A DNA stretch of 63,785 nucleotides, the filler included, from Psammoneis japonica (lineage: Eukaryota): the NCBI GenBank assembly GCA_008632985.1. It is 4 parts of 4 records of this genome, joined end to end, with 100 filler letters (N's around TTAATTAATTAA, not from the genome) between each part and the next. Parts side by side here need not be neighbours in the genome. Positions count along the whole stretch, not along the records: positions 1 to 19,878 come from QPGO01000457.1; 3 more parts are not named here. The stretch is one strand, 5' to 3'. Positions 1 through 58,732 of the stretch are shown one piece after another (position 1 is the stretch's first letter; each line of letters begins with the position of its first letter). Below the pieces are notes generated by a model. The model ran no database searches. It was not told the origin of the DNA and was given only the letters and a program-made list of their open reading frames with translations. The position numbers were made by a program, and so were the translations under genes.

Positions 1-1519
1 GATCATGAGAATGGTGCTGCATTCAACATTTTTGTGATTTCTTCCCATGCCATCACCCCAAAAGAATGTGAACTTGATGGTTTTGCTTGCAATCACCTTG
101 AGAAGCTCCCTGCTTGGCCACAATGGCATGGTGAATTCAAGCAATTGGACCAGTGCCCACTTCCATCTGCTGGGAATGTTTGGTGCTCCCATCCCATGCC
201 CCAAGAACACTGTCACATGGTGGCCCCACTGGCAACACACAGTGCAAAATCAGGTGGCACTCAACAGCCCCAATGCTGTTGTGAGGGTTCACCCCAAGCT
301 GCTCCTGCTCTCCACTGCCTGCAGTCTGCACACTTGTTGTGTGTCAAGCAGCCAATCCAACAGTTGCTTTTTGCACTCTCTGCATCAATGGGATATCAAG
401 TTCATTCTGGTGATGCTCAAGATGCCTGTGCACACTCTTCAAAACCATCTGCTCTGGTTTGTGTGCAGGTTGATGAGACCTTTGCTGTGTGGCACAAGTC
501 ACATTTTGGTGTTGACCTGGATCACTCCATTGTCCCACCAACTCTCAATGCCTTGCAGGGTCACCCAGAATCTGCCACATTGACCAGTGCCAAGCTCCTT
601 TTTCACAACAGAACACATGACAAGTGTGTTTGCACTTCTGCCTTTCAGAGAAAGTGCACTCTCTTGCTCCAACAACAGGTTGATGATTTCTCCATTGTTT
701 GCCTGGAGGAATCACGTGTGATGATCAAGATCTTCAATGAACTCAGTGCTGCTCCACAACTCCCCTGTGAGGACTCCACTTCTTTCAAGCATCTTGACTC
801 ATGTGTGGACTGGAGCTCTTCAATGGTGTTGACATTCATCAGCATGATGATTCCATGTCTGTTGCATGTCATGGCTGCATTGAGGATTGGGAACTGACTT
901 CATGTGGTTGGATCACCCCATCTGCTGACAAATCTGCCTCTGACTGCCAGGCCATGCTGATGCCAGTGGAATCAGTCTCCTGGTTGTGCTCTGACATTGG
1001 TCACATTGAAGGAGATCTCAAGAACATGCAGCCAGAATTGAAGGAGGCTCAAGGAGGTTTTGGACATCGAGACCTGCTTGGTGAGTTGTTGTGTGTGCAT
1101 GTCATTTGCTGCCTTGACATCGGCTGTGCTGTTGTGACCCTTTCCAAGTTTGTGGTGTCTCCTGCTCTGGTGCACTGCGTTGCATTGAAAGGGATTGCCA
1201 ACCCTCTTCACTGCATGAAGTGTTGGGATGTCAGCTGCAAGAAGCCCATCAAGGACTCAACTTTGCCTGTGCACCCCCACAAACAACTTGAGGCAGACCC
1301 AACTCTCTCTTTGTTCCCATCAGCAGATTCTCTTGCACAGCTGCTTGCTTTCTTGGATGCATTCTGCAATGACCTTCATGACCATTGCTCTGCCACTGGC
1401 TGTGGTTGCATGATGTCAGCCAGTGAGGCAGTTCCTTGCCATTGCAAGACAAAAATGGTGGCTGCGACCAGTTCCATGAAGGCTGAGTGAGTTTTGTGTC
1501 ACTCACTGGCACCACTGCT
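1..1519 (+). mobile_element. Ty1/Copia (CoDi-like) LTR retrotransposon, degenerate RT and start of RNase H
   Basis: Frameshifted ORFs 34-897 and 801-1490 carry diatom-Copia motifs: CCCEGSPQAAP, GDAQDACAHS, ALQGHPES, LLQQQVDDF, FNGVDIHQ, LLGELLCVHV..DIGCAV, and DAxxND..SATG..ATSSMKAE (RNase H). Tyr positions read Cys/His. Confidence 0.9.
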
Positions 1520-1649
1520 GGCTGTTCGCCACCAACGCTGCTGGGGGGTGCGTCCCACTGTAGTTGGGAGGTGGCAGTTGGTGGTGTCAGCGCTTTGCTG
1601 GGGTTTCTTGCCCTCTTTTGGCTCACCAGCAACAAAGACCGCCTCCGAT
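1520..1649. repeat. Ngaro split direct repeat B2 (copy of 1812-1941)
   Basis: About 130-bp direct repeat (ggctgttcgccaccaacgctgctgggggg...gcctccgat). Confidence 0.92.
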
Positions 1650-1674
1650 GAGGCGGCTGGGCGGGAGTGGAGGG

Positions 1675-1810
1675 TCAAAAAGTTTGCAACTGCTGCTGCG
1701 GCCTCGGCAGGCGGCGACGAGTTGCAAAGAATGCCGCTGGCATTCAGGTCGTTCAAGGCTGCGTGCACTGGGGGGTGGATGCATCTGTCCTTCCCCCTGC
1801 GCTGCTAAAA
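1675..1810. repeat. Ngaro split direct repeat A2 (copy of 6404-6540)
   Basis: About 136-bp direct repeat (tcaaaaagttt...ccccctgcgctgctaaaa). Confidence 0.92.
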
Positions 1811-1811
1811 C

Positions 1812-1941
1812 GGCCATTCGCCACCAACGCTGCTGGGGGGTGCGTCCCACCACAGTCAGGAGGTGGCAGTTGGTGGTGTCAGCACTTTGCTGGGGTTTCT
1901 TGCCCTCTTTTGGCTCACCAGCAACAAAGACCACCTCCGAT
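1812..1941. repeat. Ngaro split direct repeat B1
   Basis: Matches 1520-1649, mostly with TG/CA differences. Confidence 0.92.
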
Positions 1942-2019
1942 CCGCCACTCTTGGAGGGCCAACAAGTAAAAAGAGGATGGGCCAGAGGCAGAGCTGAGGG
2001 TGGGTGAGGCGTGCAGCCG

Positions 2020-3432
2020 TCAGTTGGCGGGTGCTTCGGCTTGATTGATGATGTTTTGCGCGACGGGTGGGACATCGGAGCCAGGGAGTGATGTGAAATT
2101 GCCGCAGTTCAGGATTTTCGTGGAGAGTCCTGCGATTGACGGCAACGCTTGGGTGTGAAGGTGTCGAAACATTGCGTCGGATTTCCAACGTCCAACGAGA
2201 CGAATGATGTCGGTGTCGACTTTGGCGCACAGAAGTGCCACAGCACCACCGGCGTGGAGGCTGCGTGCTGTGACGTCCTTGGGCAGGAAGCCGAGGTGTG
2301 GCAAGGCTGCGGCAGACACTTGGAGCATTTTGGTGATGGCGCGGCTTGTGACGTGACCCCAATGCGTGCCGAGGCGCACGGCACACAAGGCGGTGTGGGC
2401 GTTGGCACCGTTTGAACATAGACAATGCACACGGCGGGCAAGGGCGAGGACCGGGCATGCCTTGGAATGAGAGCTTCTAGCATGACCTGCCGTTTCGCCA
2501 CGTTCCCGATTCTTCTGAGCATCAAAGGTGATGCTGCTGTGTGCAGCGAGGAACAGCTGGTGCAGTGGGCAGGTCAAGTGGTCTAGTGCGCGTTGTCCGA
2601 CGAGCAGTTTGATGTCGCCTGGGACCAAGGGGTCATTGTCTTTACTCTTGCAATGCTCACCCGGTCGCAAAAGGCAGAACAGGCCGATCCAGGACATGTC
2701 GATGACAGCGTTGTCGAGGGCGGAAGATTCATCAACAAGGGCTTGTGCATGGTGCACTGTTTGAATTGGGAGAGGCTTAACGCGGTTCGGTGGCGGATCG
2801 TCTTTGGAGTGCGCACTGTAAAGGCGAGCAAGGCGAGGATCCATGGTGCCATGTGGCGTTAACCGCGGGTCCGGGGCCCCCAGTTCGGTGAACGTCTTCG
2901 CGACGTGAAGGACTTCGTCACGAACGTGCGGAGCTGAGATTGGGTTGCCGCTGCGGCTGAGGCGTCCATCCCCAAGGCGACAGGCAAAGACTCGGAGCAT
3001 CGGGATCTTGTCTTGGACACCGGCAAGGAGAGGGTCTTTGACTCCGATGTCGGATGGGAAAGGCAACCAACATTTGGCCCAGACGGTGTCCGTGGCACGG
3101 GCGCGCTTGTCAGTGACAGCTTCGCGGGCCTTTGCCATCGCAAGGCGGAGATCAGTGAAGAAACGATGTCTGGCGGCGGGTGCAGCATTTGCCAAGGTTT
3201 CGTCTGTGGAGCAAGGCGAGCAAGTGTGGCAAGGAGGTGAGACGGCGTGGAAAATTTCCGGGAGCACGTGTCGGCAAGGATGTTCGCTGGGCCAGGAATG
3301 CAATGGAAGCGGGAGACATGTTGGAGCTTTCGTTGTTGTAGGCTGCCGGCCCGCAGCATGTCGGCGCCAGGGCCGTTGGTTGTGACAGAGCCTTTGCCGC
3401 ACCGGGAGATGGCAGGCGTGTTGTTGCAGCAC
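2020..3432 (-). CDS. Tyrosine recombinase of the Ngaro element (open ORF, catalytically mutated; true start uncertain)
   Basis: Motifs FCLLRPGE, QKN, CPV, ARSLHAGGA, IIRLVGRWKSDAMFRHLH. The expected catalytic Tyr (MxRYxH) reads His (codon 2161-2163) and the expected Arg of SLRxG reads His. Confidence 0.88.
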   Translation of the reverse strand: MLQQHACHLPVRQRLCHNQRPWRRHAAGRQPTTTKAPTCLPLPLHSWPSEHPCRHVLPEIFHAVSPPCHTCSPCSTDETLANAAPAARHRFFTDLRLAMAKAREAVTDKRARATDTVWAKCWLPFPSDIGVKDPLLAGVQDKIPMLRVFACRLGDGRLSRSGNPISAPHVRDEVLHVAKTFTELGAPDPRLTPHGTMDPRLARLYSAHSKDDPPPNRVKPLPIQTVHHAQALVDESSALDNAVIDMSWIGLFCLLRPGEHCKSKDNDPLVPGDIKLLVGQRALDHLTCPLHQLFLAAHSSITFDAQKNRERGETAGHARSSHSKACPVLALARRVHCLCSNGANAHTALCAVRLGTHWGHVTSRAITKMLQVSAAALPHLGFLPKDVTARSLHAGGAVALLCAKVDTDIIRLVGRWKSDAMFRHLHTQALPSIAGLSTKILNCGNFTSLPGSDVPPVAQNIINQAEAPAN

Positions 3433-5177
3433 GTGTGGACGGTGCGTTCCCTGACGTCGACGGCGACGCCGATGACGGCCTCTTGCAGTGCTGTTCCGGC
3501 CAGCTCAAGATCGGAGTTTGTCATGGTGCCTGCGGGGTTGTCGTCCGAAACAACAGCGGCTTGCAGATCCAGAGGCAGTGGAACTTGCCAGGCGGCAGGA
3601 GGGAAGTTGTCGTGAGAGCCTGGCAATGACACGCCGCCAAAACCAGGCTTTGCTGCGTCGCACGCCCCGCAGTGGTGCCCGTCGGCGGCAGGGAATAGTT
3701 CGGCAAGCCGTGTAGGACGCGAAACAATGTCCACAGCCAAGGTGTGCAAATCTTGGAGCTGGCGGCGCGTGTGACAGTTGATGCGAGTGCGGGAGTTGCT
3801 TGAGGTGGCCAGAGAGTGCTGGAGGTTGGAGAGCAGGCCAGCACCACCGGACACCACCAACAACATGCTGCGCACTTCGCCAATCAGTTTGCAGCATTGT
3901 TTGTTGGACATGCGGCAGCGAGGGATGGTGTCGGCCAGAATGTCAAGGAGGCGTTGTCGTCGATGCGGCGGCAACTCGACAGCCCCAGCCAGTGTGTCTA
4001 TGAGCCACCCCAAAATGACCTTGACAGTCGACCACGACGCGTCTCCTTTTAGGAGTTTCTTTAGGGAGACGGTTTCGCGCCGCCAGTGTGCATCAGACGG
4101 TGTGTCAGGACAGAAGACTTGGTCGTTGATGTGCAAGAGGCGTCGACGTAGCTTGTTGAGACGAGCCTTCGTTCCTTGTGCGGCGCAGATTTCATCATCG
4201 ACGTAGACATTGAAGCATTCCAGTGGCTGAGAGCCCCGTTGGGGTTTGCGACGAAGAGCGGCGGGAGAAGGAAGGCGTGACACGCGGCCAGTTGGAGCTG
4301 CACTGGAGGGCGGCGGCACGTCGATGCGCAAGATGTTGTCGCAAGGCGCTGGAGTGGCCGCCGCCTGTTCTAGCGGATGAACCGGAGTGTCCCAAGCTGT
4401 GGGTGAGCAGCTGTTTGCCAAGTCGACCACAGTCTCGGTTCCCACACAAAAGAATGGCAGACTCTCGGTCCAGCCCATGGGTGGGACGAGAGGCAGCGCT
4501 GTCAGCAGTTCCTCCCCAGGGCCTGCTGGGAAAGCCACCCCGAGCTCAGGCACATCCTGAGGTCGCAGCCCGACGCGACAGAAGCCATCGGACAGGTCAA
4601 GCTTCAGCATGTACACTGGGCCGTGCTTTGGGTCGGCATGGAAGACATTGCACAGGAACCTGTCGAGAGCTCGACCGAATTGCATGGCTTCTGGAGGGGC
4701 ATGCTTGACGGTCTCGTCGTTGATGCCGTAGAAGCTGCAATCAACGACAGTGCGCGGGCGGCGGTCGCGTTGCGGCACCACGCCCATCGGTGAGACGCAC
4801 AGGTGGGGCAGCTTGCAGGCTTCGCGGTGTGGCAGGACAGTCCAGTGTCGTTTCTGGATCATGTCCGCCACATCCGATTCGAGGAAGCCCAGGCACTCGT
4901 GAGTGGACGGATGGCTCCCGCGGTCGGTCGCCATCCGGACCTGGTGAGGGGGCCAGTCTTCCATTGAAAACTGGACCGGTGCTCCGTCGTTACGGAGTTT
5001 GGAAAGCAGCTTGGCAGAACAATGGGGCAGCTGCTGAACATTCTCGGCCAGACACGGCTCCCTGCGCAGGTGTGCGACGAACTGGCTCCAGCCCAAAGTT
5101 TGTAAGAGTTTGACATGTTCCTCTGCTAACTTGCCCAGTTCGTTGCTGCGTGGGTGCTGCTGATGCGGATCTGGCAA
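2859..5177 (-). CDS. Reverse transcriptase / RNase H of the Ngaro element (772 aa, overlapping YR)
   Basis: RT motifs SPMGVVPQRDRRPR, KLDLSDGF, PMGWTES, YVDD, LGWLIDT. RNase H motifs CDAA, NSDLELAG, NTPA, IPGPANILAD. Confidence 0.92.
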   Translation of the reverse strand: MPDPHQQHPRSNELGKLAEEHVKLLQTLGWSQFVAHLRREPCLAENVQQLPHCSAKLLSKLRNDGAPVQFSMEDWPPHQVRMATDRGSHPSTHECLGFLESDVADMIQKRHWTVLPHREACKLPHLCVSPMGVVPQRDRRPRTVVDCSFYGINDETVKHAPPEAMQFGRALDRFLCNVFHADPKHGPVYMLKLDLSDGFCRVGLRPQDVPELGVAFPAGPGEELLTALPLVPPMGWTESLPFFCVGTETVVDLANSCSPTAWDTPVHPLEQAAATPAPCDNILRIDVPPPSSAAPTGRVSRLPSPAALRRKPQRGSQPLECFNVYVDDEICAAQGTKARLNKLRRRLLHINDQVFCPDTPSDAHWRRETVSLKKLLKGDASWSTVKVILGWLIDTLAGAVELPPHRRQRLLDILADTIPRCRMSNKQCCKLIGEVRSMLLVVSGGAGLLSNLQHSLATSSNSRTRINCHTRRQLQDLHTLAVDIVSRPTRLAELFPAADGHHCGACDAAKPGFGGVSLPGSHDNFPPAAWQVPLPLDLQAAVVSDDNPAGTMTNSDLELAGTALQEAVIGVAVDVRERTVHTCCNNTPAISRCGKGSVTTNGPGADMLRAGSLQQRKLQHVSRFHCIPGPANILADTCSRKFSTPSHLLATLARLAPQTKPWQMLHPPPDIVSSLISALRWQRPAKLSLTSAPVPRTPSGPNVGCLSHPTSESKTLSLPVSKTRSRCSESLPVALGMDASAAAATQSQLRTFVTKSFTSRRRSPNWGPRTRG

Positions 5178-5205
5178 GCAGGCAGAGGAGGGCTGCAGGC
5201 CAGCT

Positions 5206-6368
5206 CTAGAGCTGACCGGCCCCCTTCCTCAGGTGGAGGCCGCCGGCACCGGCGCGGGTTGCCACACGAGATGCCGCGTCGGGCTCTTGAGCGCGAGCTT
5301 CCAAGGCTCGAGCGAAACACAGGTGCCGCTCGGCCTTGGTGCTGTTGGCCCAGGCGTGGTACAGTGCGGGTGAGGCCGCATCATCCGGTGCGCTCGAGAG
5401 CAAGAGCCACACGGGCGCAGTCTGCGGGAAGGCTTCCGTCGGAGTTTTGGGGGCGGCGGCCGCGACCGCTGCTGCGGAGCGTGTTGCTTCCGTGCGTGCT
5501 GCATCGGCGCGGACCATGTTGGCGAAGGCCAGCACCCGGTCGGTGTTGTCAACGGCCATGGCATCCAAAGCGGGCAGATCATGTGACAAGGTGCGCCAGC
5601 AATGCTCCTGTAGTCGGGCGTCCACCGCGAGTGGCGGCAAAGCAGCAGCACGATCACCCAGACACTGAACCGGGTCTGGATTCGCCGCTGTGTCGGTGGT
5701 GAGTGCCGTGCGCAACCAGTCGACAAGGGGACTCAAATCCCCCGCGCGTCCGTCGTTTTGAATCGCTCCTGCCAGTTCCCGCCAGGCCTGCAGCGGAGTG
5801 AGATCCCGGTTCAACATGAGATGCAGATGGGCGTGGGGCACCTGCGCGAGTCGATGGACGTAGATCGCACCGGCATCCGGGCGCCGTCGGTCTGCGGCGG
5901 CACCAAATCATCTTCATCTGCCAAAGCACCTTCTGGGGCGGCCATGTTGGCCACCGCAGGTGCCACTTGTGGGCCCACAGTTTCGAACGGAGTGTTGGGC
6001 AACTCGAGGATGGCAATGAAGTTACCCGGTAGTACGTCTCCTTGAAAACAGAACACACGGCCGTCCCACGGCGAAGTCTCCACCGGGTCTCTGATGCAAA
6101 CCGAGGGCCGGTGGATGCAGGCAATCCGGCAACCCGTGCCTTGCCGCACCAGCGCCAAAAAGGCCTTGGGTGCCACATCGCTCGAGTCGATGATGTGCTC
6201 GAGCAGCGCAGCAGCCGGCTCGGGAGCGGCGACGGTGGTGTCGTGTCGACGAAATAAGTTCGCGCAATCCCCTCCCAAGTGATCGCCTTGGGTCATCCAC
6301 TTGTCGTGGCATGTTTTTGGGGGTGCCGGTGGCGCTCCACCGGCAGCTGCAGAAGGGATGGCAGCCAT
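5206..6368 (-). pseudogene. Ngaro ORF1 (gag-like), frameshifted near 5830
   Basis: Consecutive Ala/Pro-rich ORFs 5811-6596 and 5206-5841 upstream of RT; ATG at 6368 just inside repeat A1 boundary region. Confidence 0.7.
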
Positions 6369-6403
6369 GAAGAGACAAAGGTTGGCGCATGTCGCTCCCT
6401 TTC

Positions 6404-6540
6404 TCAAAAAGTTTACAACTGCCACTGCGGCCTCGGCAGGCGGCGACGAGTTGCAAAGAATGCCATTGGCATTCAGGTCGTTCAAGGCTGCGTGCGTTGG
6501 GGGGGTGGATGCGTCTGTCCTTCCCCCTGCGCTGCTAAAA
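6404..6540. repeat. Ngaro split direct repeat A1 (5' end of element)
   Basis: Matches 1675-1810. Confidence 0.92.
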
Positions 6541-7200
6541 AAACATGTCCTGTGCCTGCAATGATCAGTCCTCAAGAAGCTTGGTTGCCCCCTCAAGATG
6601 ATGCCACTCCTCTCTTTGTTGACAGCGAATCAGCACCATCAAGATCGCCAACAATTGTGTTCCCACCAAGCAATCTTGCCACATTGACATCCAGTGGTTT
6701 GTCATCCAAGACTGGAAAGAAGATGGGGGTGCCATTGCCAGACACATCCCAGCCATTGTCAACCCCAGCGATGATCTCACCAAGGCTGCTCTTGGTTTGA
6801 TGCCACACGCCCATCATGCTCACCAGCTCATGGGATGCTGCCACTGAGTCTTTTGTCCTGACTCTGAATGGCATCTGCTGAATTGCCCTTTTTGTGTTTT
6901 GTTCTCTTGTTTGTTGGTCATCTGGTCTACATTGCTCTGGAGACCAACTGCTGTCTTCCCTTTCATTCTGTCTGTGATCTGCACTGCCTTTTTAGACATG
7001 CCAGATCAGAGGAGGGTGTCAGTCAACCTGTTCTGCTGCACACGGTGCCAGACTGTTTGCAGATGACAGCCAGGCATCCAGACCAGACAGACAAGCAGAT
7101 CTCTCTGAGATTTGCTCGTCTCACTCTTTCTTGCTGGCACCCATGTTGTCACTGTCACTGGTTTGTGGGGAGGACCCTTGCACTTGTTGCTCTTGATTTG
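6541..7200 (+). mobile_element. Copia remainder: RNase H C-terminus, polypurine tract (7008-7016) and start of 3' LTR (TG at 7017; LTR end not resolved)
   Basis: KHVLCL.., TPLFVDSESA, HIDIQ, IQDWKEDG, HIPAIVNPSDDLTK; AGAGGAGGG immediately followed by TGTC. Confidence 0.8.
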
Positions 7201-39551: not shown

Positions 39552-40960
39552 CATGTCTGAGTTGCAGTTGGATCCATCAGCCATCCACCTGCGGTGAATG
39601 GCTCTGTCACTGCCACCCTTGACGCCGTCTCGGACAAATTGCTCCATCAAATCTGACAAGCTCCTGGATGCTCACAAGTTTGAACTGGTGTCCATGCGAA
39701 GAGCATGGCTTCAACTCTCCCGCGGCGCACAAGTTTGAACATGTTTCTACTTTGCTGTAGAATGACTTTCTGGGGTCTGAGTTGACACCCGACCGTGTGG
39801 TGTCACACATTGGCAGAATCAATTGACAGAAAAACAAAGCATCCCGATTTTTCATCCGCTCAGCTTTCATTCCCAACGATCGCAACACATCTGCATCCAA
39901 TGATCCTTTCCCAATGGCTGGAAATGGGTTGTCTTTTGATGCACCCGATCCATTCGGCAGTGACAACATCAGATCTTTGTCATCATCAGCAACATCGTTG
40001 TTGGACATGGGCCGATCCCATGCCTGACAAAAGAGCCGCCATCCATGGGAAATTCGTTTCCCTTCCGAATTCTCAGGTGCTGGTGTGGCACCAGTTGGCA
40101 AGCTGTGATGAACATGCTCCTTCTCCCCTCTTGCCTCAAACTCAGGGTGGAGCGCATGTCTGCTCCACCCTCCAGGATTGTCCACATCAGCAAATGGTGG
40201 CTCCCCCTTGTCTGCTTTTTATTTCAGGTGGCTGCCACCCTTCAGGAGTGCCTGGAATGTTCAACTGTGCCGATGGGTCATGCTCACCATGGTGCAGCAG
40301 CAAGGCAGTGTGGTCGTTGTCAGCCACAGTCTGTTTGTCACTGTCTTGGTCCACAACACGCGATCTCAACCGTTCCAAATGGGCTTCAGCACGAGCTCCA
40401 TCAACATCATTGACATTCTCATGCTCTTCGTTGCCATCACCGCCATCTCCCGTCTCTGTCTCATCCTCAAGGACATGCTCGGGGTTCACCAGTTGGTCCT
40501 CCACGGTTGCGGGACCAAAGTCTGTGGCCGTCATGTGCAGCGGTGGCCCTGGTTGTTGTGCTGCCATTCCACCAAACGCTTCATTGGTGCTTTCAGAGGC
40601 GGCCATCTTCGTCACGACGTTGATGATCCGACTCACTGAGCATGTCACTTTGACGACAATGGCGGTGGCTGTGGTTGTTGGTTTTTTTTGTAGTCATCGG
40701 CTTTTCAACGTAGACTCAGGTGACATTTCTACGGCGATGCGTCACTGCAAAAAACCCGGGATTCAGTCCCCGAACACCCCGGGTTTCATGCCCACTCCAT
40801 GTGCAGTGATGACGACAACAAAATGCCAATGTAACTCCAACCGTTGGACATGTTGTTTGAAGGGTAAACAGTCATTAACATCCCGACTAACGGCTAACGG
40901 CTAGTGGAAAACCCGGGACTGAATCCCGGGTTTTTCGGGGCGCCCAGACTATCTACCCAA
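39552..40960 (-). mobile_element. 5' part of a piggyBac-like (DDE_Tnp_1_7 / 'IS4') transposase gene, ATG ~40606, with subterminal inverted repeats
   Basis: VDNPGGWS, HSLPTGATP, KGSLD..L..LG...RM..DALFFCQLILPMCD..SG..DPR..FY..GHQFK..ELVRFDG, recalled as typical of diatom members; aaaaacccgggattcagtccc (~40750) is inverted at ~40915. Confidence 0.65.
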
Positions 40961-42139
40961 CACGCGGTGCAATCCAAAAAACTGTTGATGTCACAGCTCA
41001 GCAGTGCACACCGGCGCGTGGGAGCTGGAACGAATCTTGGACTGATAATTTCGAGCGCGCGATTAGCACAAAAATCGTCAGTCGTCATGGAAGCAATAAA
41101 AAGCAAAGGAAAAATGGCATCACCATGACGAAAGACGACAACTGTGGTAAAGAAGTTGAACCCTCCGATCTCGGATGGTACTTGGTCCTGAGGACGATTT
41201 CAGGATAAAAGGGTGTGGATGCAACCGACCAGAAAGTTATGGGTGTACGACTGTATGACAAACCGAGAAGTTCAGCTGCCAGTGGAATAAGAAAAGCCAC
41301 TGAGCTCAGCAACACGTTGACAACCAAAATCCATGTTATTTCTCTCTTCGTAACAATTCTTTATTCGAATCCTGGCCAATGAACGATTGGTGGAGTGCAG
41401 GTGTGTTTTGAAGTATGTATACCTTTGCTTATTATTGACGAATGATATACCGAGCATCTTGTCAATAAAGTGAGTTTTCATGCGGTTGCGTTGTTGGTAT
41501 CGTTGTTGTGTGTGGTTTGTTTTGCACTCAATATTATCATTTCTAACTACTGAACTTTTGTATTACATACTCGAGGAGTCGTGGACCTCTTTTTGAAGAA
41601 CATTCTGAAGAGTGTCGAGGACGGCATGGAGGATACGCTTGGTGGTGGAATATAAGGTGATAACAACCATTTGTTGCAGTACAACAAGACCGAGGACGAG
41701 AGTACAGTACCTTTGACGTTCTTGTTGTTGTAATTGCTACGTTTTTCTCGACATACGAACGAAAAACAGTGAATCAAAACGCACGATAGTCATCTTGCAT
41801 CAGAAATTTCGAGTATTCATAGCACATTACAAAAAGACAATGCCATCGTCACGAGACCAATAAGAAGAACTTGAATGTTCAGGACTAGGCTGACTTGGAT
41901 GATGATGGGAATGAATCGGTGAGGAGTCATTTATGGATCGGCCACTGAGTGATTTTCATGGCTCTATATGGCACAGCGTTCGTGCAAGTCCTTTCTGCGC
42001 AACCTCAACAAGGTCTATGTACGTTTGTACGGAGACAAGTTGCCTCCCTCGGAATTGCTAAAAATCTCTGTCTGGCATCGACGCTTTTCTTTAGGTTTGG
42101 CGGATATAGGGTGTTACGAAGTCTCAAGGACCCGTCACG

Positions 42140-42990
42140 GTGATTCCAAAGGCAAAGATGTTTTCTGTTGTAGTGGTGTTGGTTGTGGTTAGCATTTACA
42201 ATCGACTACTCGACTCGGACATTGCGCGACACAAAATCTTTTATGTCTTTGGGTCCTTCTACTTTTGCCCTTTCTTCTTTATTTCATATTTGCTCATGGA
42301 TGACGAGATTGGTTTGGCCAACCAACAACCCCACCCGACTCGTTGGGATGGATCAGCTATTGCTCCATTGAATCCTTTGGCTCCGTTGTGGTATCGCTCT
42401 TTTGGTCCTTCGCCAACTCCAACTTTTCGTTGGAGACAGCCAAGGCCTGTTACGGAGCATGGTGGCCACGGCCCAAGCCGGAGTATCCTTGGTCCTACTG
42501 CGTGGTGAATCGATACTGTGCGACTTGGGGTCCTGCCAAGTGTTACCTTGTTGGTGCACTCGTACACTCTTGCCGCAGTTTACCATGTGCACCTGTATTC
42601 TCATTTATGGGGTGGCCCGAAGAACAGCTTCTTTATGGTTGAAATGACCATTGTTGATTACACCGTGAAGGTGTCGACGCGAGACTACTTTGGCGAAGGC
42701 ATGAGTTGCCACATCCTGATACCGGAGACCACAGCATGTCGCAAGACGCAACCGCCGCCTGACGCTCCTCTCGTTCCCGCGCTCTGTCTGGTTGTCGTTA
42801 TCTTTGTCTGACTTCATCCGACCCTTAACGTCGTGTTTGCAGCCATGATGATGCTCAAGGCTTGTTCCTACGCCTTGAACAATCCTACCAAGGAAACGCT
42901 CTACAACCAACCTCGCCCGCGGTCCAGTACGAGGCATTGTCGTGGATTGATACCTTTGGTGCACGTGGAAGCAAGGCAAGCGCAAGCTCG
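42140..42990 (+). pseudogene. Nucleotide transporter (NTT / TLC ADP-ATP carrier family) fragments with frameshifts and deletions
   Basis: [81 protein letters not shown]. Confidence 0.85.
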
Positions 42991-43339
42991 TCTCATACTT
43001 GTCACCACGAATATGGTGAAGGGTATCCCGCAAATGTTTACGGTTTTTCTTTACCTTTAGGCTGTCGGCAGTGTTGTGACGAACGCCTTCTCTGACTCTG
43101 CGTCGTCCTTGGTTGCAAACGGTAGCTTGGTGGGAATGATGGTCGCCTCCTTTTTGATTTGGACTGCCCGCTGCATGGGAAAGAGAATGCACCAAGAGCG
43201 GATATATTGTCGGAGGTGACAATTGTGAATAGCAAAATGGACAATGAAGAGAAGAATTTGGAAATGGCCATGGTGCAGAACGAAGATAAGGATGCAAGTT
43301 GTGCCATTGGTGGCACGAGACTTGGGATTACCGGCGCAA

Positions 43340-43830
43340 CATTGGTATTGACACGGGGTTGCGGTATCAATACTCAAAACGACATCGGGGCATGGAGGCA
43401 TTTTGGCTGTAAACCCAATCCACAGTCCTTGTTGGATTCGCTTGAAGCGGATGGAACGAACAATAATATATTTGATATGCATCGTCAAGTGTCCGGTGCC
43501 ACAGGTGTGGGTGATTCGTATTTTAACAACAACGGACAGTCTGAAGCTACAGACAGTAATGACACCAAGGAATACTTACTCGTGACGAGAGAAGATACTG
43601 TTCGGGCATTGTATTTGGATGGGCTCGACATGGTGATTGTTGTGGGACGTCCCAATGGACCAGATGAGTACACTCATATTGCTGGAAGAACGGGACGGGC
43701 TGGACGGCGTGGCAAGGTTGTTGCTGTGGTTTCAGAAGACAACGCCGCGGCTTTGAAGTCGTGGGAACGCATGCTGAATGTGACCTTTGAGCTACTTGAC
43801 ATGGGCAATGTAGCAACGATCTTGGCGTGA
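43340..43830 (+). pseudogene. DEAD-box helicase C-terminal domain fragment
   Basis: LLVTREDTVRALYLDGLDMV..P..DEYTHIAGRTGRAGRRG (motifs V-VI); no motifs I-III upstream. Confidence 0.75.
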
Positions 43831-44241
43831 AATCTTAGAAATGATATGAACCAAAAGTCTCGCTTTGATGTTGGAGCTTAGTTGCCGGAGAGAGCTTGTG
43901 CACCAGCTAGTAATCGCGCTGATACTGATTTATCACTGTTGAGTTGCAATGACGGCTATTTTAAATACCATGTGTCGTTAGTAGGTTATGAAAGTACCTA
44001 CAAAGGGCTAGTAGAGTGTGCTACAGTACGACTATTGTAGAATGTAGCCCTCTCTAGGGCTGCATCGGCAACCATATGGTAACTACATAGAGCCCCTTAG
44101 AATAACGAACGATCATGATAATATTGTACTATACTTTCCGCTCGAAGCTAACTAATAACATATATCCCCTCGACGCTAATCGAGACTCACTAACGTCTCA
44201 ATTCCATTCAATCCCACCTAATGTCTGATGGTTCCGGGTGC

Positions 44242-45321
44242 TTAAACAACGATTCGAAAGGCGAGCCTGATTTGTTTCAAAGTTGTGTCCCAACTTCCAA
44301 TGGCAGGTTCGGGCACCTCAGCAGTGGTCTCGGGTTCTTCCCAGGGTTTCAAAACTGGTAGAGAATCTTGCAGAACGTTCATCAAACGCATTGACGTATC
44401 AAACACTTTCTTTTCCCAATATTTAGCCTTCCACTCAATCGTTGAGCGACAGTCAGACAGAATTGGGTCCAGAAACGAGACCTTTTCGAAAAGAAGGTTC
44501 GTCTGAGTCTTTGCTAGCGTAGTCAAGCGTGTCGACAATTCCAAAACTCTCTTCCCCCAATGTCCAACGCTCGATTTGATCTCAGAGAGATGGTTAGACA
44601 AGATTGGGTTCCGAAAAAACGGCAAAAAATTATCGCGTTCCTGAAGAACGAGTGCCTGAGTCTGGATTTGTGCGATGACGTCGTTCGAAAGTACGTCTAC
44701 AAGTTTCCACCAAAGCTGAAACGCTTCCGACTTGATATCCGAAAAGATGCTGCACGTGTCCGACAAGAAGGCCGACTGGATCTCCAAAAATATCGTGAAC
44801 GTATCTTGGAACGGGACTGACTTGGTCTCAACCGTGCTGTCGGGAGTGGTGTTGTGAAAGATGTGCTGGAGGCTGCCGTTGGAGTCGCCATTGTTGTCCT
44901 GAACAAAATATTCATAGACACAATACTCGTTGGCGTCTTCTGCTGGTACAATCGTGGGCGTGGTATTGCGTAGGAGGTCTTGGACGCGACTCGGAGACTT
45001 GTCGCCGTCGTCAAAATAAACGCAGAAGCCGGAAATGATGATGGCGTTTTCAAAGGGAACAGTGTTGGGAGCGTCGTTGCTGATGATGTTATGGTAGTAG
45101 CTGGAGGTAGTGTCGATATCTGAGTAACGGGTGTTGTCCAAAAACTTGCGTAAGAGCTCTTGGTTGATCGTGGCGATGCTGTCGGTCGCCGTGGTGGCCT
45201 TGATCGACAAGGCGCTAACGCCGCGCTTTGCCGCATCAACAAACGAGGCAGAGAGAGGACTGATAATGGCACCAGCGCTCATGGCGGCTATGATAGCAAG
45301 GACAAAGTTCATGATTTTCAT
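44242..45321 (-). CDS. Hypothetical protein (~359 aa) with N-terminal signal peptide
   Basis: Long ORF in normal-composition DNA; hydrophobic leader MKIMNFVLAIIAAMSAGAII; normal Tyr content; decayed paralog at 58.3-58.7 kb. Confidence 0.7.
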   Translation of the reverse strand: MKIMNFVLAIIAAMSAGAIISPLSASFVDAAKRGVSALSIKATTATDSIATINQELLRKFLDNTRYSDIDTTSSYYHNIISNDAPNTVPFENAIIISGFCVYFDDGDKSPSRVQDLLRNTTPTIVPAEDANEYCVYEYFVQDNNGDSNGSLQHIFHNTTPDSTVETKSVPFQDTFTIFLEIQSAFLSDTCSIFSDIKSEAFQLWWKLVDVLSNDVIAQIQTQALVLQERDNFLPFFRNPILSNHLSEIKSSVGHWGKRVLELSTRLTTLAKTQTNLLFEKVSFLDPILSDCRSTIEWKAKYWEKKVFDTSMRLMNVLQDSLPVLKPWEEPETTAEVPEPAIGSWDTTLKQIRLAFRIVV

Positions 45322-45599
45322 GATGGACTGTGAACTGACGAGCAATTCAGAAATTGTGAGAGCACTCGAACGAGGAGAGATTCTGTCTGCAATGGAGGCG
45401 CCGTCGTACACGTAGAAATCTACGTGGCGTGGGCCGTTTCCCAGTTGCATTGAAGTTCGAAGAAAGTTTCGCGATGGTTATTTTGGCGCAGTTGGTGCTC
45501 CTATCGAGCTTAGATGATCGTGCTATTCCACGCAGCCAGCACATTAATTCTAGAGCGCCAGGCTGTCTCTGAGAGGTTTGACTCTGCTCACCACTTTCC

Positions 45600-48139
45600 T
45601 CTCCTGACTTACAAAGCAGCATTTGGAGCAGGAGTGAAGAGGTTTTCTGTGGTTTTGCAAGCAAGAGCTGATCCATTCTTCACTGACAGAGGCCAAGAAA
45701 AATCGGCTGGGGCACGCTCAGCTTGTGCCTTCCAACTGTGCTGGTGGTGGCTTCAGGGAGGATGCAGTCCTGCACTTGCATCAGTCTTGTTGAAAGCTCA
45801 TGCATTTGATGACACTTGTGAGATCTATGAGTTTGATGGAGTGGTGCCAAATTGTGAGTTGTTTGAGGCATGTTTGACGTGCGCTCTCTCTCAGCGCACG
45901 GTGCCTCAAGAAAGTTCTTTGAGGCCACTTCGGTGCTGCAGGTCCTTCATGTGGCTGCAACATCAGGACTGACAGTTGCAACCATTGCAAGGAAGGAAGA
46001 GTGCACTTGTCTGGTCAGGAAATGGAGCACTGTGCATCCAGAACAAATTCTTTCCTTGTTGGGCAACACCCCCCCTTCTTGTGCGCCCGACGACTTTTTT
46101 CATCACCTTCAACCAGGAGAGTGCAGGTCATTTGTGTGGATGAGAAGGTGATGAGTTGCTGAGGCAGATGCCAGAGGATCTTGGTGTGGATGCTGAGAAT
46201 CTTGGCCATCTTGTCTGTTCTGCTGCGAGTTCATTTTGTTGCCAAGGACAAAAGGTGTCATGTGCAGTTGTCTCAAAGCTGCTGAATCATTTGCATTGAA
46301 TGCAACAGGGATCATCTTTCATGACCCATGGCATGGTTTGAAGAAAGAAGAGCACTGCTCAGCATGGCATGCTCCCATCCATGAGTTGCACAGATGTCAC
46401 ATCATCCACAGCATGGTCGCTCTCTCAACGCTCCTGACCATGCAGAGGACTCAGGGGAATGCAGCACCAAAGGAAACAATGCAACCTGTGCCACTCAAGC
46501 ACTCTTCATCCAGTGTGGCATTGTTGCACCTTTTTTGAGTCTTTCCCTTGCCCTTGCACACATGTCATCCACAGCAGGTTGGTTGAGCGAAGACAAACTC
46601 AAGCACAATTCAGGACCGGAACAGTCTGCGTGCCTTTTGGGGGTGGTCTGGCCCTTGCTTGCACAGGGATTCCCAAGCATTGGACAGCTGTGACATCAAA
46701 ACACTTGATGCATTGAGGGACTGCACAGTGGAAATTGTTGGTTTGTGCATGTTGCAAGCTGAAATGTGCAAAAAGCACCCAAATTGTTGCAGGACAAGGA
46801 GTTCGTAAAGGCACATGTCACACAATGGGGAGGGATGCGCTGCCAGGCAACACACTGCTGACTGCAAAGAGCTCTGCAATTTGCCAAATCATCAGACAGA
46901 AAAAGTGAAGAGGAAGAAGCATCCTTGAGTGCTCATGAAGCATGTGCACTGGGCCTTGGGTGACTTTCTTGTGGTTGGAGACAGTGACTGGTGGATGCAA
47001 GGCAGAGGAAGAACAAGTCTTGCACTTGGAGACTGGGTGTGAGCAGCACACGATTGGCCATTCACTTGCAGAGAAGCGATCATGGCATTCAGCCAATTGC
47101 ACTGGGAAACCAGTCAAGACTTGTTGATTGCATCCTTGGGTTTTGTGGAGTTTGTTGTGGCTGTGCAAGAAGGCCTTGTCCTCCCTCAAACAAAGTCTTT
47201 CCAAGCTTGAAATCCATCAACCCCAATTGCCTGACAGTGAGAAGGTGTGGCGCTCACACATGAAAAGATTGGCGCCCTTTCCAAGGCCACAGGGCACAGT
47301 CAGAAAGCAGAAACTGCCTTTCAAGAAGCTCTGTGGATTTGCAAGCTGGTGCACGGCAAAGATCATGAGCTGGAAGGGGCTGTTTTGCATGAGCTCAGTG
47401 ACTTCTTGGCAGATGACATGGGTGATTGTGATCAGGCAATGAGATGCCAAGCTGTGGCACTTGGTGTTCCTTGCAAGAGCTTGGGGCTGGCTTGTGAGGA
47501 CATTGCAGCCACTCTTTGCACAGCATGGGATTCATGCTGCACATTCAAGATGAGCCAGAACAAGCTTCACAATGCTTTGAAGAGGCTTTGAACATTCAGA
47601 AACTACGACTTGGCAAAGACTCCAAGGAGGTTGGTGACACGCTGAACATGATGGGCTTCCTGCTGGCAAGGCGTGGAGAAATGGATGATGTGAACTCATT
47701 GCTTTGGGATGCTCTGAGAATCCAGAAGCACCAAGAAGATCTCATTAAAGTGTGCGAGACTCTCAAGAACATCAGAAACGTGCACAGAGAGAAGCGCAAA
47801 CATGATTTTAATGCCTTGTGCTGTGAAGAATGTCTCCACATTCGAAGAACCGAGTTGGGTGATGGTCACGAGAAGGTTGTAGATGCATTGGTTGCAATCG
47901 GCAACATTGGCAGTGACACGGAAGAGACGGAACCCGCAATGCAAGAAGCGTGCAAGGAGGCGCTTACGATTCGAACCATGGTTTATGGTCGAAACGACGA
48001 CAAGGTTGCTGCCGTACTTCAACACATGGGAACCATGGAGTTTCGATCGGGTGACTTTGACAGCGCACAACGCTGTTTGGAAGAATTTGTACGTATTCGC
48101 CGTGAGAATCATCAAGCCGAAAAGCACGTAGCTACATAG
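45600..48139 (+). pseudogene. TPR-repeat (kinesin-light-chain / NPHP3-like) gene remnant; 5' extent uncertain
   Basis: TPR-like units clear at 47250-48139 (FEEALNIQKLRLG..VGDTLNMMG; EECLHIRRTELG..V.DAL..IG; KEALTIRTMVYG..KVAAVLQHMG); frameshifts; strongly decayed upstream. Confidence 0.75.
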
Positions 48140-48477
48140 CTACAGTACCGGGTAGTAAGAATATCGCTATTCTTCTTCCCATAACCCTCGAGTTCGTGGA
48201 AAGCCATGCCAGGATTGCAAAATATGCTTTGTAATAATATCCAATTATCAGGTACATCTTACGTTGACTAGAGACTACCCCATTTAGTCTAAAAGAATGT
48301 TATCCCGCACAATCTTCTCTAACATTTGTATAGTCAACGTCAGCAGACAGAAGTCTATGACTAAGAGTCTTCCCACATTTCAGCGTCGTGTCAATCTCGG
48401 CAATACAGAAGTGCGCGCTGTCGTTGACTTGGACACCGACATGAAGACGTGTTGGGCCCCCCTTGCGTTCAACAAAT

Positions 48478-48882
48478 TCAATTACCGTCGCCATCCATTG
48501 CAGTATCTGGTGCGCAGCCATCAGCGCTGTCCATCGTCAACGGCGCAGCATCAACGCCAGTCATCATTCCGACGACCTGCTTGAGACATTCCATGTTCCG
48601 CTCCTTGTGTTGGTCGTTGATCTGTTGGATACCTTTTCGATTGCCGCTGATGCAGGTTTCCAACGCCTGGTTATTCTTGTCCTGCGTGTCGGCCAATGCC
48701 TGCTTCATTGCCTGGCTGTTCTTAGCCTGCGTGTCCTTTCGAGCTTCATCATTTGCAGATAACAAAGCAGCGGCAAGAGTGTTGGTTTGTTGGGTGTTAT
48801 TTCCCATCATTCTTTCCATCATATCAAACAAATGCTCATTCCGATGGCGTTGGGGTGTCTCTCCGGTGCCAGTAGCGTGCAT
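48478..48882 (-). CDS. Hypothetical coiled-coil-like ORF (134 aa)
   Basis: Protein-like Gln/Asn/Ala-rich composition in normal DNA; no recognised domain. Confidence 0.35.
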   Translation of the reverse strand: MHATGTGETPQRHRNEHLFDMMERMMGNNTQQTNTLAAALLSANDEARKDTQAKNSQAMKQALADTQDKNNQALETCISGNRKGIQQINDQHKERNMECLKQVVGMMTGVDAAPLTMDSADGCAPDTAMDGDGN

Positions 48883-49097
48883 GATTTGAATAAAGAGCCG
48901 ATAAACCGCGGAGCGAGTGGTCGTTGTTACTGTAGCCCTACCGGCATTGTTTGAGTGTTGCTGTGAGCGCGGAGGGGGGGGATTGTGCGACGGTGGATGG
49001 CTTGAACCTCATGCGTAGATTCTACGCAGAAAATGTACTGAAAAAATGATGCATTCTCACTCGCAAAACTTTATGTGTGTATACGTTCTGAATAAAT

Positions 49098-49251
49098 ACA
49101 TTGCGATGTTTTCGTCACGCGAAATTAATGAATGTGTTCGGTCTTTAATAACACATTGCGATGTTTTCGTCACGAAAAACGATGTTTTCGTCACGCGATA
49201 ATAAATGAATGTATCCCTGCTTTAAGTACACATTGCGATGTTTTCGTCACG
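49098..49251. repeat. Four exact copies of CGATGTTTTCGTCACG
   Basis: At 49104, 49159, 49180 and 49236; three are preceded by ACATTG. Confidence 0.9.
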
Positions 49252-50149
49252 GATTCAATATATACAGTTTGCATACTACGAAATGCTAATCAATTGGGCG
49301 ACTCCGTTCGCGCAGCCGCCAATCACGTAGAACCACGTAGAATTTGTACCAAATGCCGTTGCACGTTCCTTTTTTTCTCCCCTCCACCTCCGATCAGTGG
49401 TGCTTTGTACCGTACGAGTCGAGTAAGTTAGAAGCAATTGATCAGTACACAGCATGGAGATCGAAATGGGTATTTCAACCTTTGCTTCCAAGCAGCATGC
49501 TGAATTCATGGCGGCATCCAAGGCACGGTATTCCATAAATTTGTGGTGCACGAGGGTAAGGCAAAAAGAAATATGATGTTTATGGAAAAGAAGTAATCCC
49601 ACTTGAAATGTGTGCATGTTATCCTTGGTTGACATTAACGGAAACATGGCTCGCCTTGATTCACTTGCAGTGTTGAGCGACGAGGAGAATGGCCAGAAAG
49701 TTGAGGGCAACAACACGATCATAGAGGATACTGAATTGCACCAAAAAACGCAAAGTAAAGAGTGAAAAGTCTTCTCAAACTACCGTAGTAGTCAAGACGA
49801 TTACGCATCAAAACCTGCGCCAACAGATAGAAAGAGGGTGCGATATCTCAGTTGACCGAATGGGTCGGCCAATATGTTGCTGAAAAGGTTGTTGCAATGC
49901 TACTTAATTTTGGAAGAATGCGGTAGCGAGGGACGAGGAAATGATGGTAAAGCTATGGAGAAAAATGTCACATTGCCACCAATTACAGAGAAAACAGTTC
50001 GACCCGACTTTTTCGAGTTTGTCCTATCCAAAGAGAACGCAGATACGAGCATGGCGATCAAGGAAATCTGCGTTTGGCGTGGGTTTCGCATTCTCTGCCG
50101 ACGAACGATTATATTTATCTGACCGATTTTTTTTTTCTTTTTTATCCTC

Positions 50150-50747
50150 CAGTTTTTCATAGGCGGCTCGTAAGAACAAAGATAAGCAGTGCAGTTCCAC
50201 CAGACTGTGCTCCCAAATCTAAGCCTCTGATTTTTGATGAGGACATGACTTTCAATGTCGACCGAACCGTGATGTAGAGTACGTACGAGGAGAAGTCATC
50301 GGATTCTGTGAGGTTACAGAGCGACAGTTTGGACTAGGGGAACCGTATGATTCTGAAAATGGACGTGGAAAAGCCGTGGTCAAGAGCGCTCGCAAGAGTG
50401 GTATCGGTTCTAATCTTGTAGATGCATGTGAGAATGCTGTGATCGAATGGGACGAAAACTGTTCACGTAGATACAATGAGATTATTCTGGAAGTGGAAGC
50501 AGCTATTCCCAAGGCGCTGGATTTCTATGAAAAAAGAGGGTACTAATCAGTGTTTGACAATCCGGCAAGCCGAAGATTTGATACGAGCGGATTTGTCTTG
50601 CGTCGTGCACAGTGTAACAAGATTTGCATGCGCAAGACACTCGATTTTCGTCGTGCCCTAAAGGAGAATGAAAAAGACAAAGCAACCCTCGGCGACTTGG
50701 GGAAGAATATATTTGGAAAGCTTAACATGTTTCAAAGCCGCAGCTAG
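50150..50747 (+). pseudogene. GNAT acetyltransferase remnant
   Basis: GEVIGFCEV..ARKSGIGSNLVDACE..IILEVE..ALDFYEKRGY followed by in-frame TAA at 50544; frameshift near 50270. Confidence 0.75.
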
Positions 50748-50912
50748 TCTATCATTTGAAGATTTTGCAGAAGACTTATCAATAGTGGCGAATCCATCAC
50801 GGAAACAATTCTGGATTCGCCAGCACTGCATCAACTGAAGTCGTATCAGACAAAAGGTCGTCTGTGTCTTTGCAGCGACTGCTCGTCTCTACTTGTGAAG
50901 GATCCTTGTGAC

Positions 50913-58279: not shown

Positions 58280-58732
58280 GTGTGCTGCTGCAGCGCACTT
58301 CAGAGTGCAGCACAGGGCTGCAACCATGTGGTTGACTGCATGGAGACCTTTGTAGAATGGCAAACAACCATGATGACATTGCACTGCACTTTCTGCCAAA
58401 GCCAGCCAATGACATGAATCCTTGATGATGCAATCAAGACTCACTTGTGTCTTGACAACATTCTCACCACCTGACATCCAATGCCTCCAGGTGCTCAAAC
58501 AATGGCTCAAAAGGCAAGCACCTGATTTGTTTCAAAGCTGTGACCCAACTTCCAGTGGCAGGTTTGGGCACTCAGCAGCATTCTCGGTTTTCTTCCCAGG
58601 GCTTCAAAACTGGCAGAGAATCTTGAAGAATGTCCATCAAATGCATTGACATGCAAACACTTTCTTTCTCCAACATTTGGCCTTCCACTCAATTGCAGAG
58701 TGGCAGTCAGACAGAATTGGGTCCAGAAACAA
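58280..58732 (-). pseudogene. Hypermutated duplicate of ~44010-44480 (3' end and downstream DNA of the 44242-45321 gene)
   Basis: cagtcagacagaattgggtccagaaac is identical in both copies; colinear for more than 400 bp. Confidence 0.93.

Follow-up and report, generated by a model that had tools for sequence, protein, structure and literature searches.

The stretch of DNA analysed here, which we call the window, comprises 63,785 nt of Psammoneis japonica (GenBank assembly GCA_008632985.1), and close to its left end it carries, on the minus strand, a retrotransposon of the Ngaro type that is nested in another repeat and encodes a reverse transcriptase (RT) and a tyrosine recombinase (YR). The first-pass annotation of this locus had placed the nested element at 1520..6540; these coordinates and the anatomy hold, with the ends now set at 1519 and 6539, because a contig from a public run that represents the empty site joins window position 1518 straight to 6540, with no letters shared at the joint. 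The features of the element and of its host repeat are as follows, where ORF stands for open reading frame and o/e for the ratio of observed to expected counts.

1519..6539, minus strand: YR retrotransposon of the Ngaro type, 5021 nt long, inserted without a target-site duplication (from the empty-site joint, composition, repeats, and RT and YR homology).
6404..6539, minus strand: split direct repeat A, first copy in element orientation, paired with 1675-1810 (repeat search and alignment).
5811..6369, minus strand: N-terminal half of ORF1 (gag-like), from an ATG near 6369 within a stop-to-stop frame at 5811-6629, matched by tblastn to relatives L006, L001, L022 and L009.
5206..5907, minus strand: C-terminal half of ORF1, in another frame through a frameshift in this copy.
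2859..5228, minus strand: RT/RNase H frame, 789 codons, open, with 3 Tyr and 28 Cys.
2038..3195, minus strand: YR frame, open, with the catalytic Tyr replaced by His (CAC) and a catalytic Arg replaced by His (CAC).
1812..1941, minus strand: split direct repeat B, paired with 1520-1649 at 93% identity.
1675..1810, minus strand: split direct repeat A, second copy, paired with 6404-6539.
1520..1649, minus strand: split direct repeat B, last copy in element orientation, paired with 1812-1941.
1..1518, plus strand: host repeat, left part, fully purged (1 TA and 5 CG in 1519 nt, TG and CA o/e about 2).
6540..7000, plus strand: host repeat, right part, which the empty-site contig joins directly to 1518.

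Read in the orientation of the element, the order is A (6539-6404), ORFs, B (1941-1812), A (1810-1675), B (1649-1520), and the repeat pairs are 93-98% identical overall (93-98% for the A pair and 93% for the B pair). The RT frame has 439 homologues, the best of them 55% identical; its translation contains a VYVDDE motif, and RVT_1 was matched by all five of the RT homologues that were scanned, at E values of 4e-5 to 2.5e-3, below the gathering score. For the YR frame we found 2530 homologous proteins of about 380 aa over window positions 3195-2038. In a fold search, an AlphaFold2 model of the closest of them, P0121 (53% identical, pLDDT 79.8), matched Cre; 27 matches in the PDB reached E <= 0.001, and Cre chains took all of the top 25 ranks (TM 0.5-0.7). 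The phrog_1 integrase was matched by 5 of 25 members of the YR family and PF00589 by 4 of 25; a profile of the YR homologues gave no real match to PDB sequences, and Pfam gave none, even at an E value of 10, to the RT, YR and ORF1 frames of the window or to the host ORFs. Rfam and tRNA scans of the window found nothing.

In the available part of the source (PMC3783388), Ngaro elements, which belong to the order DIRS, are described as having A-pol-B-A-B split direct repeats, a gag-like ORF1, RT/RNase H and an overlapping YR ORF, and as lacking both a methyltransferase and a target-site duplication. The present element shares the repeat arrangement, the gag-like ORF1, the RT/RNase H, the overlapping YR and the absence of a target-site duplication. 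A Dam-like methyltransferase, the DIRS marker, was not found by Pfam in the ORFs of the window or in five RT homologues, which is weak evidence, as a missing match is not proof. By its repeat order, its RT and YR, and its lack of a methyltransferase and of a target-site duplication, we identify 1519-6539 as Ngaro-type. No second Ngaro copy was found by tblastn within the 64-kb window.

In contrast to the Ngaro norm, this copy is dead, even with open frames for RT and YR. Both halves of ORF1 lie in a single frame in all four relatives that match both (those listed above) and in two frames here, and in YR the catalytic Tyr and an Arg have been replaced. The ORFs had been described as open, which is so for RT and YR (P = 5.5e-5 that 789 codons would stay open by chance, given the stop frequency of the element itself) and not for ORF1, which is split over two frames. 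Open frames are in any case weak evidence of youth or integrity here, because a change of TA to TG or CA destroys TAA and TAG and makes no stop; only CGA to TGA can do so.

The element and its host repeat have very different dinucleotide compositions. The element has a GC content of 0.61, a CpG o/e of 0.90 (414 sites) and a TpA o/e of 0.18 (34 sites), whereas the left flank (1-1519) has a CpG o/e of 0.05 (5 sites) and a TpA o/e of 0.01 (1 site), with TG at 2.02 and CA at 1.89, and the right flank (6541-8000) has a CpG o/e of 0.10 (9 sites) and a TpA o/e of 0.05 (4 sites). The comparison set was made up of RT-coding DNA from 80 metagenomic relatives. Their TpA o/e had a median of 0.57 and a minimum of 0.33, and none of the 80 was as TpA-poor as the window RT (0.17), while their median CpG o/e of 0.93 was close to that of the window RT (0.91). 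GC richness does not have the power to explain the TpA deficit, because the 35 relatives with a GC content of at least 0.57 still had a median TpA o/e of 0.55. Against this norm, TpA in the element stands at about 30% of the family level and CpG at about 98%. A nested element purged of TA yet rich in CpG, within a repeat poor in both, is what the first-pass annotation had described, and the description stands; the counter-proposal named with it, that both dinucleotides would decay alike after GC correction, fails on these figures and on those from the repeat pairs below.

The direction of change can be read from a segment of about 420 nt that is present twice in the window, once in a gene island and once in purged DNA:

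44055..44476, plus strand: unmutated copy of the duplicated segment, in a gene island, overlapping the 3' end of a 411-aa ORF (44242-45477, minus strand).
58313..58730, plus strand: purged copy of the same segment, found by self-comparison of the window.
40700..45599, no strand: gene island that escaped both processes, with a TpA o/e near 0.65, a CpG o/e near 1.0 and a Helicase_C match.
47900..51199, no strand: second spared gene island, with a GNAT match.

The 22 TA of the island copy read TG at 11 positions, CA at 8, TA at 1 and something else at 2 in the purged copy (19 of 22 TG or CA), and its 19 CG read TG at 10, CA at 8 and CG at 1 (18 of 19 TG or CA). Existing TG and CA were mostly retained (14 of 18 and 30 of 32, respectively). 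The substitutions comprised 20 T>C, 18 A>G, 13 C>T, 11 G>A and 13 transversions. Both self-complementary dinucleotides thus become TG or CA, and they do so in only one copy of the duplicate. Since TA to TG or CA requires A>G or T>C, it cannot arise by deamination of 5-methylcytosine (5mC). The earlier proposal that TA conversion is fast and no mere by-product of 5mC deamination is therefore upheld: the duplicate displays both conversions directly, and their rates differ by a factor near 8 (see below). No homologue of the 411-aa island ORF was found in the protein collection, and an Atlas search also returned nothing; together with the 55% identity of the best RT homologue, this weakly points to an organism with no public proteome.

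Both losses are confined to domains. The purged DNA (36.8 kb) has a TpA o/e of 0.058, a CpG o/e of 0.415, TG/CA at 1.70 and a GC content of 0.497, and the islands (7.6 kb) have 0.63, 1.05, 1.12-1.23 and 0.464, respectively. At the island borders, near 40.7, 45.6, 47.9 and 51.2 kb, the number of TA per 200 nt jumps between 0-1 and 8-13 within at most 200 nt, and CpG shifts at the same borders. All 50 non-island 1-kb bins have a TpA o/e of at most 0.28, with a CpG o/e that spans 0.02-1.02. Among all 58 bins none combines TpA above 0.35 with CpG below 0.6, and eight combine TpA below 0.35 with CpG above 0.8. Across the bins of the window TpA loss always comes first, before CpG loss, and residual TpA falls along with CpG (Spearman 0.38, p = 0.006).

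The TpA loss depends strongly on the flanking bases. Relative to the islands, and with the artificial spacers of the window masked, TA survival in the purged DNA was 0.004 for ATAC/GTAT, 0.014 for GTAC, 0.018 for ATAT, 0.036 for ATAG, 0.041 for ATAA, 0.076 for CTAC, 0.083 for CTAG, 0.149 for GTAA, 0.254 for CTAA and 0.448 for TTAA. RTAY is the preferred target, far more sensitive than YTAR, and TTAA is the least sensitive. For CpG, survival ranged from 0.29-0.38 in WCGW to 0.72-0.88 in SCGS. AA, TT and AT were not depleted; the A:T>G:C change is limited to TpA. The spacers lie at 19879-19978, 39452-39551 and 58733-58832, and each consists of 44 N, TTAATTAATTAA and 44 N, an artificial six-frame stop; together they add nine false TTAA. 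Their presence means that the window is made of concatenated contigs and that adjacency across a spacer is not real.

A number of other sequences of the window were noted. A 23-nt satellite occurs in both orientations in well over 200 copies (19979-20268, 20711-24167, 25757-25979, 26353-26792, 35209-36363 and 37265-37435); its consensus has no TA and one CG, and its arrays are TpA-free with a CpG o/e of 0.5-0.95. A 111-nt satellite at 58833-60078 (11 copies, 84% matches), right after the purged duplicate, has one of the highest TpA o/e values outside the islands (about 0.27). In the region 46900-48139, most of an ORF with a TPR_12 match (47498-48139, E 9e-20) is purged DNA, and the border at about 47.9 kb falls inside the ORF; this would be either a member of a gene family that is undergoing purge or a case of purge spreading from an adjoining repeat. 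A GC-rich 218-nt unit is present in 1.9 copies, with 97% identity, at 24441-24865, and a tandem array of 60-nt units (also 122, 182 and 242 nt; 72-77% identity) at 9720-10224 lies within long open frames and is possibly a repetitive protein-coding remnant. At 8701-9000 the contig depths add up to about 4389, where the unique flank has 57, indicating a very high-copy repeat that still has TA and CG.

The same changes can be seen in the proteins of the element. The first-pass annotation had counted only 3 Tyr in 772 aa of RT and 1 in 470 aa of YR, and the scarcity is real: taken from stop to stop, the RT frame of 789 aa has 3 Tyr by our count, and the YR frame of 494 aa has a single one. In 120 RT homologues the Tyr content has a median of 1.94% and a minimum of 1.04%, against 0.38% in the window RT, and Cys stands at 3.54% in the window RT against a median of 0.97%. 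In 50 YR homologues the median Tyr content is 2.57%, against 1/391 (0.26%) in the window YR. With such medians the family is not natively Tyr-poor, which had been named as an outcome that would undo the argument. At the 10 RT columns with Tyr in at least half of 60 homologues, the window has Tyr at two, Cys at five, His at two and Asp at one, and a column that is Tyr in 60/60 homologues reads TGT (Cys). The catalytic Tyr column of YR (Tyr in 48/49 homologues) and an Arg conserved in 48/49 homologues are those listed above as His, both CAC, and a further Tyr column (37/50 Tyr) is His (CAT). When a column was called conserved if at least 70% of 40 or more homologues shared the residue, Tyr was retained at 1 of 5 and Arg at 25 of 29. 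All four losses of conserved Arg were CGN to TGN or CAN, and 22 of the 25 retained Arg use CGN codons. Three of four Ile to Val changes were preceded by T, as was the sole Met to Val change, which marks TA to TG across a codon boundary. From these alignments we conclude that the Tyr poverty of this copy is mutational and not native to its family.

At Tyr codons, read on the sense strand, TA became TG five times and CA four times. Both strands were thus changed, which argues for mutation of the DNA in place. We did note that on the sense strand of the RT region (2859-5228) the TG o/e of 1.47 exceeds the CA o/e of 1.28, with both at 1.11 in 13 relatives, a mild strand asymmetry of the conversion.

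A separate measure comes from the paired repeats of the element, which differ by 17 transitions, no transversions and one indel in 267 aligned nt. The two differences that had been singled out before are both real, one of TA against TG (gtttacaac/gtttgcaac, at 6415/1686) and one of tgtagtt against cacagtc (at 1559-1566/1851-1858). By site class there were 12 CG/CG, 5 CG/CA, 4 TG/CA, 1 TA/TG, 1 TA/CA and 1 TA/TA. Maximum likelihood (ML) estimates of the conversion per copy were 0.80 (0.50-0.92) for TA (pTA) and 0.18 (0.08-0.36) for CG (pCG), giving a TA:CG rate ratio of 8.1 (1.9-27.6); pTA was nowhere at or below pCG within the ~95% region. The repeats of the relatives L017 and L008 are 100% identical. 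Two of the 17 differences, at 1737/6466 and 1768/6497, are C/T at CTGG, outside CpG and TpA, and may represent a minor CHG-type C>T component. As the two copies of each repeat differ, the change in the Ngaro repeats would have happened after integration. Three measures on the same element, namely the family norm, the repeat pairs and the conserved Tyr and Arg residues, agree that, in this sequence, TA is lost faster.

The first-pass annotation had also seen in this a two-clock way of dating insertions, and that idea survives in part. TpA loss precedes CpG loss, so that insertions can be ordered roughly; dates are not given, since TpA saturates early, as the low TpA of every non-island bin attests, and the context dependence of TpA loss is strong. 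In the only experimental system, the alga Bigelowiella natans, moreover, TpA hypermutation was episodic and affected only some lines, according to the available text of the preprint (10.64898/2026.01.13.699255). As an indirect hint of a rate far above background, about 1.6 conversions per TA site stand against 2/17 repeat-pair substitutions outside TA- and CG-type differences in 267 nt.

The host repeat is possibly the C-terminal region of a Ty1/copia pol; the label 'Copia' is unproven, and comes from a language-model search of the Atlas in which rank 5 for the host ORF was a cluster bearing RVT_2 (score 0.89), a lead only; some resemblance of motifs was also noted by eye. In that search one Atlas cluster was labelled Bacillariophyta for one of its members. 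No homologue of the host ORF at 798-1490 was found in the protein search. The empty-site contig (4642 nt) differs from the flanks at 4 positions in 1518 nt and at 32 in 2173 nt, and some of these differences are CA/TG doublets (995/996 and 6634/6635). The same public run holds pieces identical to the interior of the element, so the insertion is probably polymorphic, that is, hemizygous or differing between strains. The contig depth of 25-32 for two element-identical pieces, against 57 for the flank, hints at hemizygosity, although depth is not copy number. Two further runs, X2 and X3, yielded no more on this. The family is multi-copy, with 1331 contigs at 80% likeness or more and 199 at 99% identity or more.

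The observations above establish the direction of the change, its dinucleotide specificity, its action on both strands, its restriction to domains, the relative rates and the context preference. What they suggest, and what we consider probable from the sequence, is a targeted hypermutation of TpA to TpG or CpA in non-genic domains beside a slower decay of CpG, with an adenine deaminase as the presumed agent. Non-genic domains would be subject to hypermutation at the DNA level, TpA changing to TpG or CpA by A:T>G:C on either strand, and gene islands would be spared; a second process, about 8-fold slower per site, would convert CpG to TpG or CpA in the same domains. Since both processes end in TG and CA, old repeats would come to be nearly without TA and CG and to hold twice the expected TG and CA. 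The Ngaro element would have inserted recently into an already saturated repeat and been caught mid-way, conversion having reached about 70-80% of the TA sites and about 15% of the CG sites. The resulting changes would be missense rather than nonsense, with Tyr turning into Cys or His, with Arg turning into Cys, His or Gln, and with Ile turning into Val after T, and such conversion would leave the RT and YR frames open despite the loss of the catalytic Tyr. As to chemistry, we favour a mechanism by which adenine at TpA in silenced chromatin would be converted to inosine, read as G, by an ADAT2/TadA-like deaminase, and CpG would be lost through 5mC deamination or through a side activity of the same enzyme on C. 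In DNA, amphioxus ADAT2 acts as a deaminase of A as well as of C, the latter preferentially in TCG, according to the available part of its description (PMC10354150), so a single enzyme for both arms is conceivable, although the contexts fit only in part. A bolder form of the idea is a defence by double deamination of chromatin domains, of A at RTAY and of C at WCGW, which would erase both self-complementary dinucleotides as a mirror of the repeat-induced point mutation (RIP) of fungi, and would be fast enough to knock out catalytic residues, through missense changes that keep frames open, before the insertion ceases to be polymorphic; we offer this only tentatively and regard it as doubtful.

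Several points weigh against the hypermutation reading or limit it. The ML model assumes that the repeat pairs were identical at insertion, and the relatives L017 and L008 are metagenome contigs whose 127-nt terminal repeats may be assembly artefacts. ACG and TCG decay alike, a misfit to a 5'-T rule for C, and a context test of which strand is struck, and of TG against CA as product, gave no signal in 7 asymmetric sites. As TA is a palindrome, A to inosine on one strand leaves the same trace as T>C on the other. For adenine, amphioxus ADAT2 prefers GAA and not TA (PMC10354150, available part). CpG has 0 occurrences in the available text of the B. natans preprint, and by analogy with that alga, where only 1/231 mutations was other than AT>GC (10.64898/2026.01.13.699255), the CpG arm here may be a separate system.

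The equivalence of T>C and A>G at a palindromic TA also allows an oxidation of thymine, by which a TET/JBP-type enzyme would convert thymine at TpA in silenced DNA to 5-hydroxymethyl- or 5-formyl-uracil that pairs with G. Dinoflagellate DNA shows an enrichment of 5-hydroxymethyluracil at TpA, and 5-formyluracil mispairs with G. Nothing here separates this route from adenine deamination, but the sole study of the signature proposes the latter, and we regard thymine oxidation as unlikely. A rather unlikely reading, and one that concerns absolute speed, is that the Ngaro sequence is old, was purged elsewhere, and was recently moved as DNA, either by recombinase excision and reintegration or as a dead copy mobilised in trans; only the insertion would then be young, and the speed of the process would be overestimated. 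That an empty site exists although YR is dead and ORF1 is frameshifted speaks for such a move, as does the large number of family contigs given above. The relative rates of TA and CG loss would be unaffected, since both sat in the same sequence equally long, and the two repeat-pair differences at CTGG, the only ones outside the TA and CG types, leave little room for ordinary divergence.

Editing before integration, by an ADAR-like A to inosine change on RNA or by deamination of cDNA and fixed by reverse transcription, would fit the TG excess on the RT sense strand noted above and the preference of ADARs for a 5' U (cited in the available text of 10.64898/2026.01.13.699255). It does not fit the changes on both strands at Tyr codons, the differences between repeat copies within one element, or the purging of DNA that is not from retroelements (the duplicated gene end and 36.8 kb of assorted DNA), and this reading is largely refuted and highly improbable. 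Nor are the data well explained by a bias of repair or recombination that drives AT>GC regionally in heterochromatin with no special enzyme, for instance GC-biased gene conversion or error-prone repair. The slightly higher GC content of purged DNA agrees with it, but the change is limited to TpA, with AA, TT and AT undepleted, the sensitivity of contexts differs more than 100-fold between ATAC and TTAA, and the rate far exceeds that at other sites in the same repeats, which makes such a bias very unlikely. Finally, TpA is mildly under-represented in most genomes, as in the relatives here, and the composition might be native or selected, with the family or all non-genic DNA TA-poor by ancestry or selection. 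None of the 80 relatives is as low, the RT column that is invariably Tyr reads Cys, the catalytic Tyr is lost and the duplicate gives the direction of change; we take this last reading to be refuted.

For annotation, the consequence is that dead, purged elements keep long open frames and turn rich in Cys and His, which may mislead gene callers, domain searches and frame-based dating of transposable elements, and that heavily purged elements escape Pfam and word-based homology searches altogether. Pfam searches with 42 ORFs from the other purged DNA gave only three matches, one RING-H2 and two weak ones, all at or below the cut-offs. The RING-H2/zf-ANAPC11 match (15202-16275, minus strand; E 1e-5, 26 bits where the cut-off is 25) lies in a fully purged ORF. 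Because Tyr and Arg codons become Cys and His codons in the purge, zinc-finger-like matches in purged DNA may be artefacts.

Among known systems, fungal RIP is alike in being a transition hypermutation in dinucleotide context that disables repeats and leaves a strong dinucleotide skew. RIP converts CpA to TpA, thereby enriching TpA, and mutates both copies of a duplication. We rejected it as the process at work here, as TpA is depleted and only one copy of the 44055/58313 pair has changed. The CpG decay of methylated transposons through 5mC is alike in the change of CG to TG or CA in silenced repeats, here down to a CpG o/e of 0.05 in the host with WCGW lost first and SCGS last, but it accounts for only one of the two purges. 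APOBEC3 and ADAR editing in animals likewise cripples retroelements by missense transitions of the deaminase type; those enzymes, however, act before integration on one-strand cDNA or RNA, whereas here both strands and non-retroelement DNA are affected and the change follows integration.

A literature search on TpA loss in transposons or diatoms found only the preprint on B. natans (Mettrop et al., 2026, bioRxiv, 10.64898/2026.01.13.699255), from the available text of which the following is taken. In mutation-accumulation lines, 231/302 nuclear mutations fell in integrated giant-virus and virophage regions, and 230/231 of these were A>G or T>C, all on TpA, at about 6e-7 per site per generation, a de novo rate about 1000-fold over background. 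In the insert from a nucleocytoplasmic large DNA virus (NCLDV) 210/211 mutations were of this kind, with no accompanying excess of G:C>A:T. An ADAT2 homologue was proposed as the deaminase, and genome-wide there are clusters poor in TpA and rich in TG and CA, with RT or DDE domains and a zinc-finger motif among the TpA-poor genes (10.64898/2026.01.13.699255).

By analogy, we conclude that the signature in the window is of the same kind as the TpA hypermutation of B. natans, as both consist of TpA to TpG or CpA by A:T>G:C confined to certain regions (here 19/22 TA in the duplicate). Compared with the preprint in its available text, the targets here are retrotransposons, a duplicated gene end and most of the non-genic DNA of the 64-kb window; TpA is near saturation, with an o/e of 0.06 against 0.45 in the NCLDV insert; CpG to TpG or CpA runs in the same domains (18/19 in the duplicate; CpG 0.415 in purged DNA), perhaps as a separate process; and a tetranucleotide preference, RTAY far above YTAR, is seen. 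Our data suggest that an insertion polymorphism lasts long enough for the process to act, and the RTAY preference is a constraint that any candidate enzyme must meet. TpA-specific A:T>G:C hypermutation has so far been the subject of one report, on two viral inserts in one alga, and here the same kind of signature extends over entire non-genic domains and over ordinary retrotransposons, nearly to saturation. What the window adds to the preprint, as far as its available text goes, is thus this reach, to retrotransposons and a gene end, together with the CpG arm, the RTAY rule and an estimate of relative rates.

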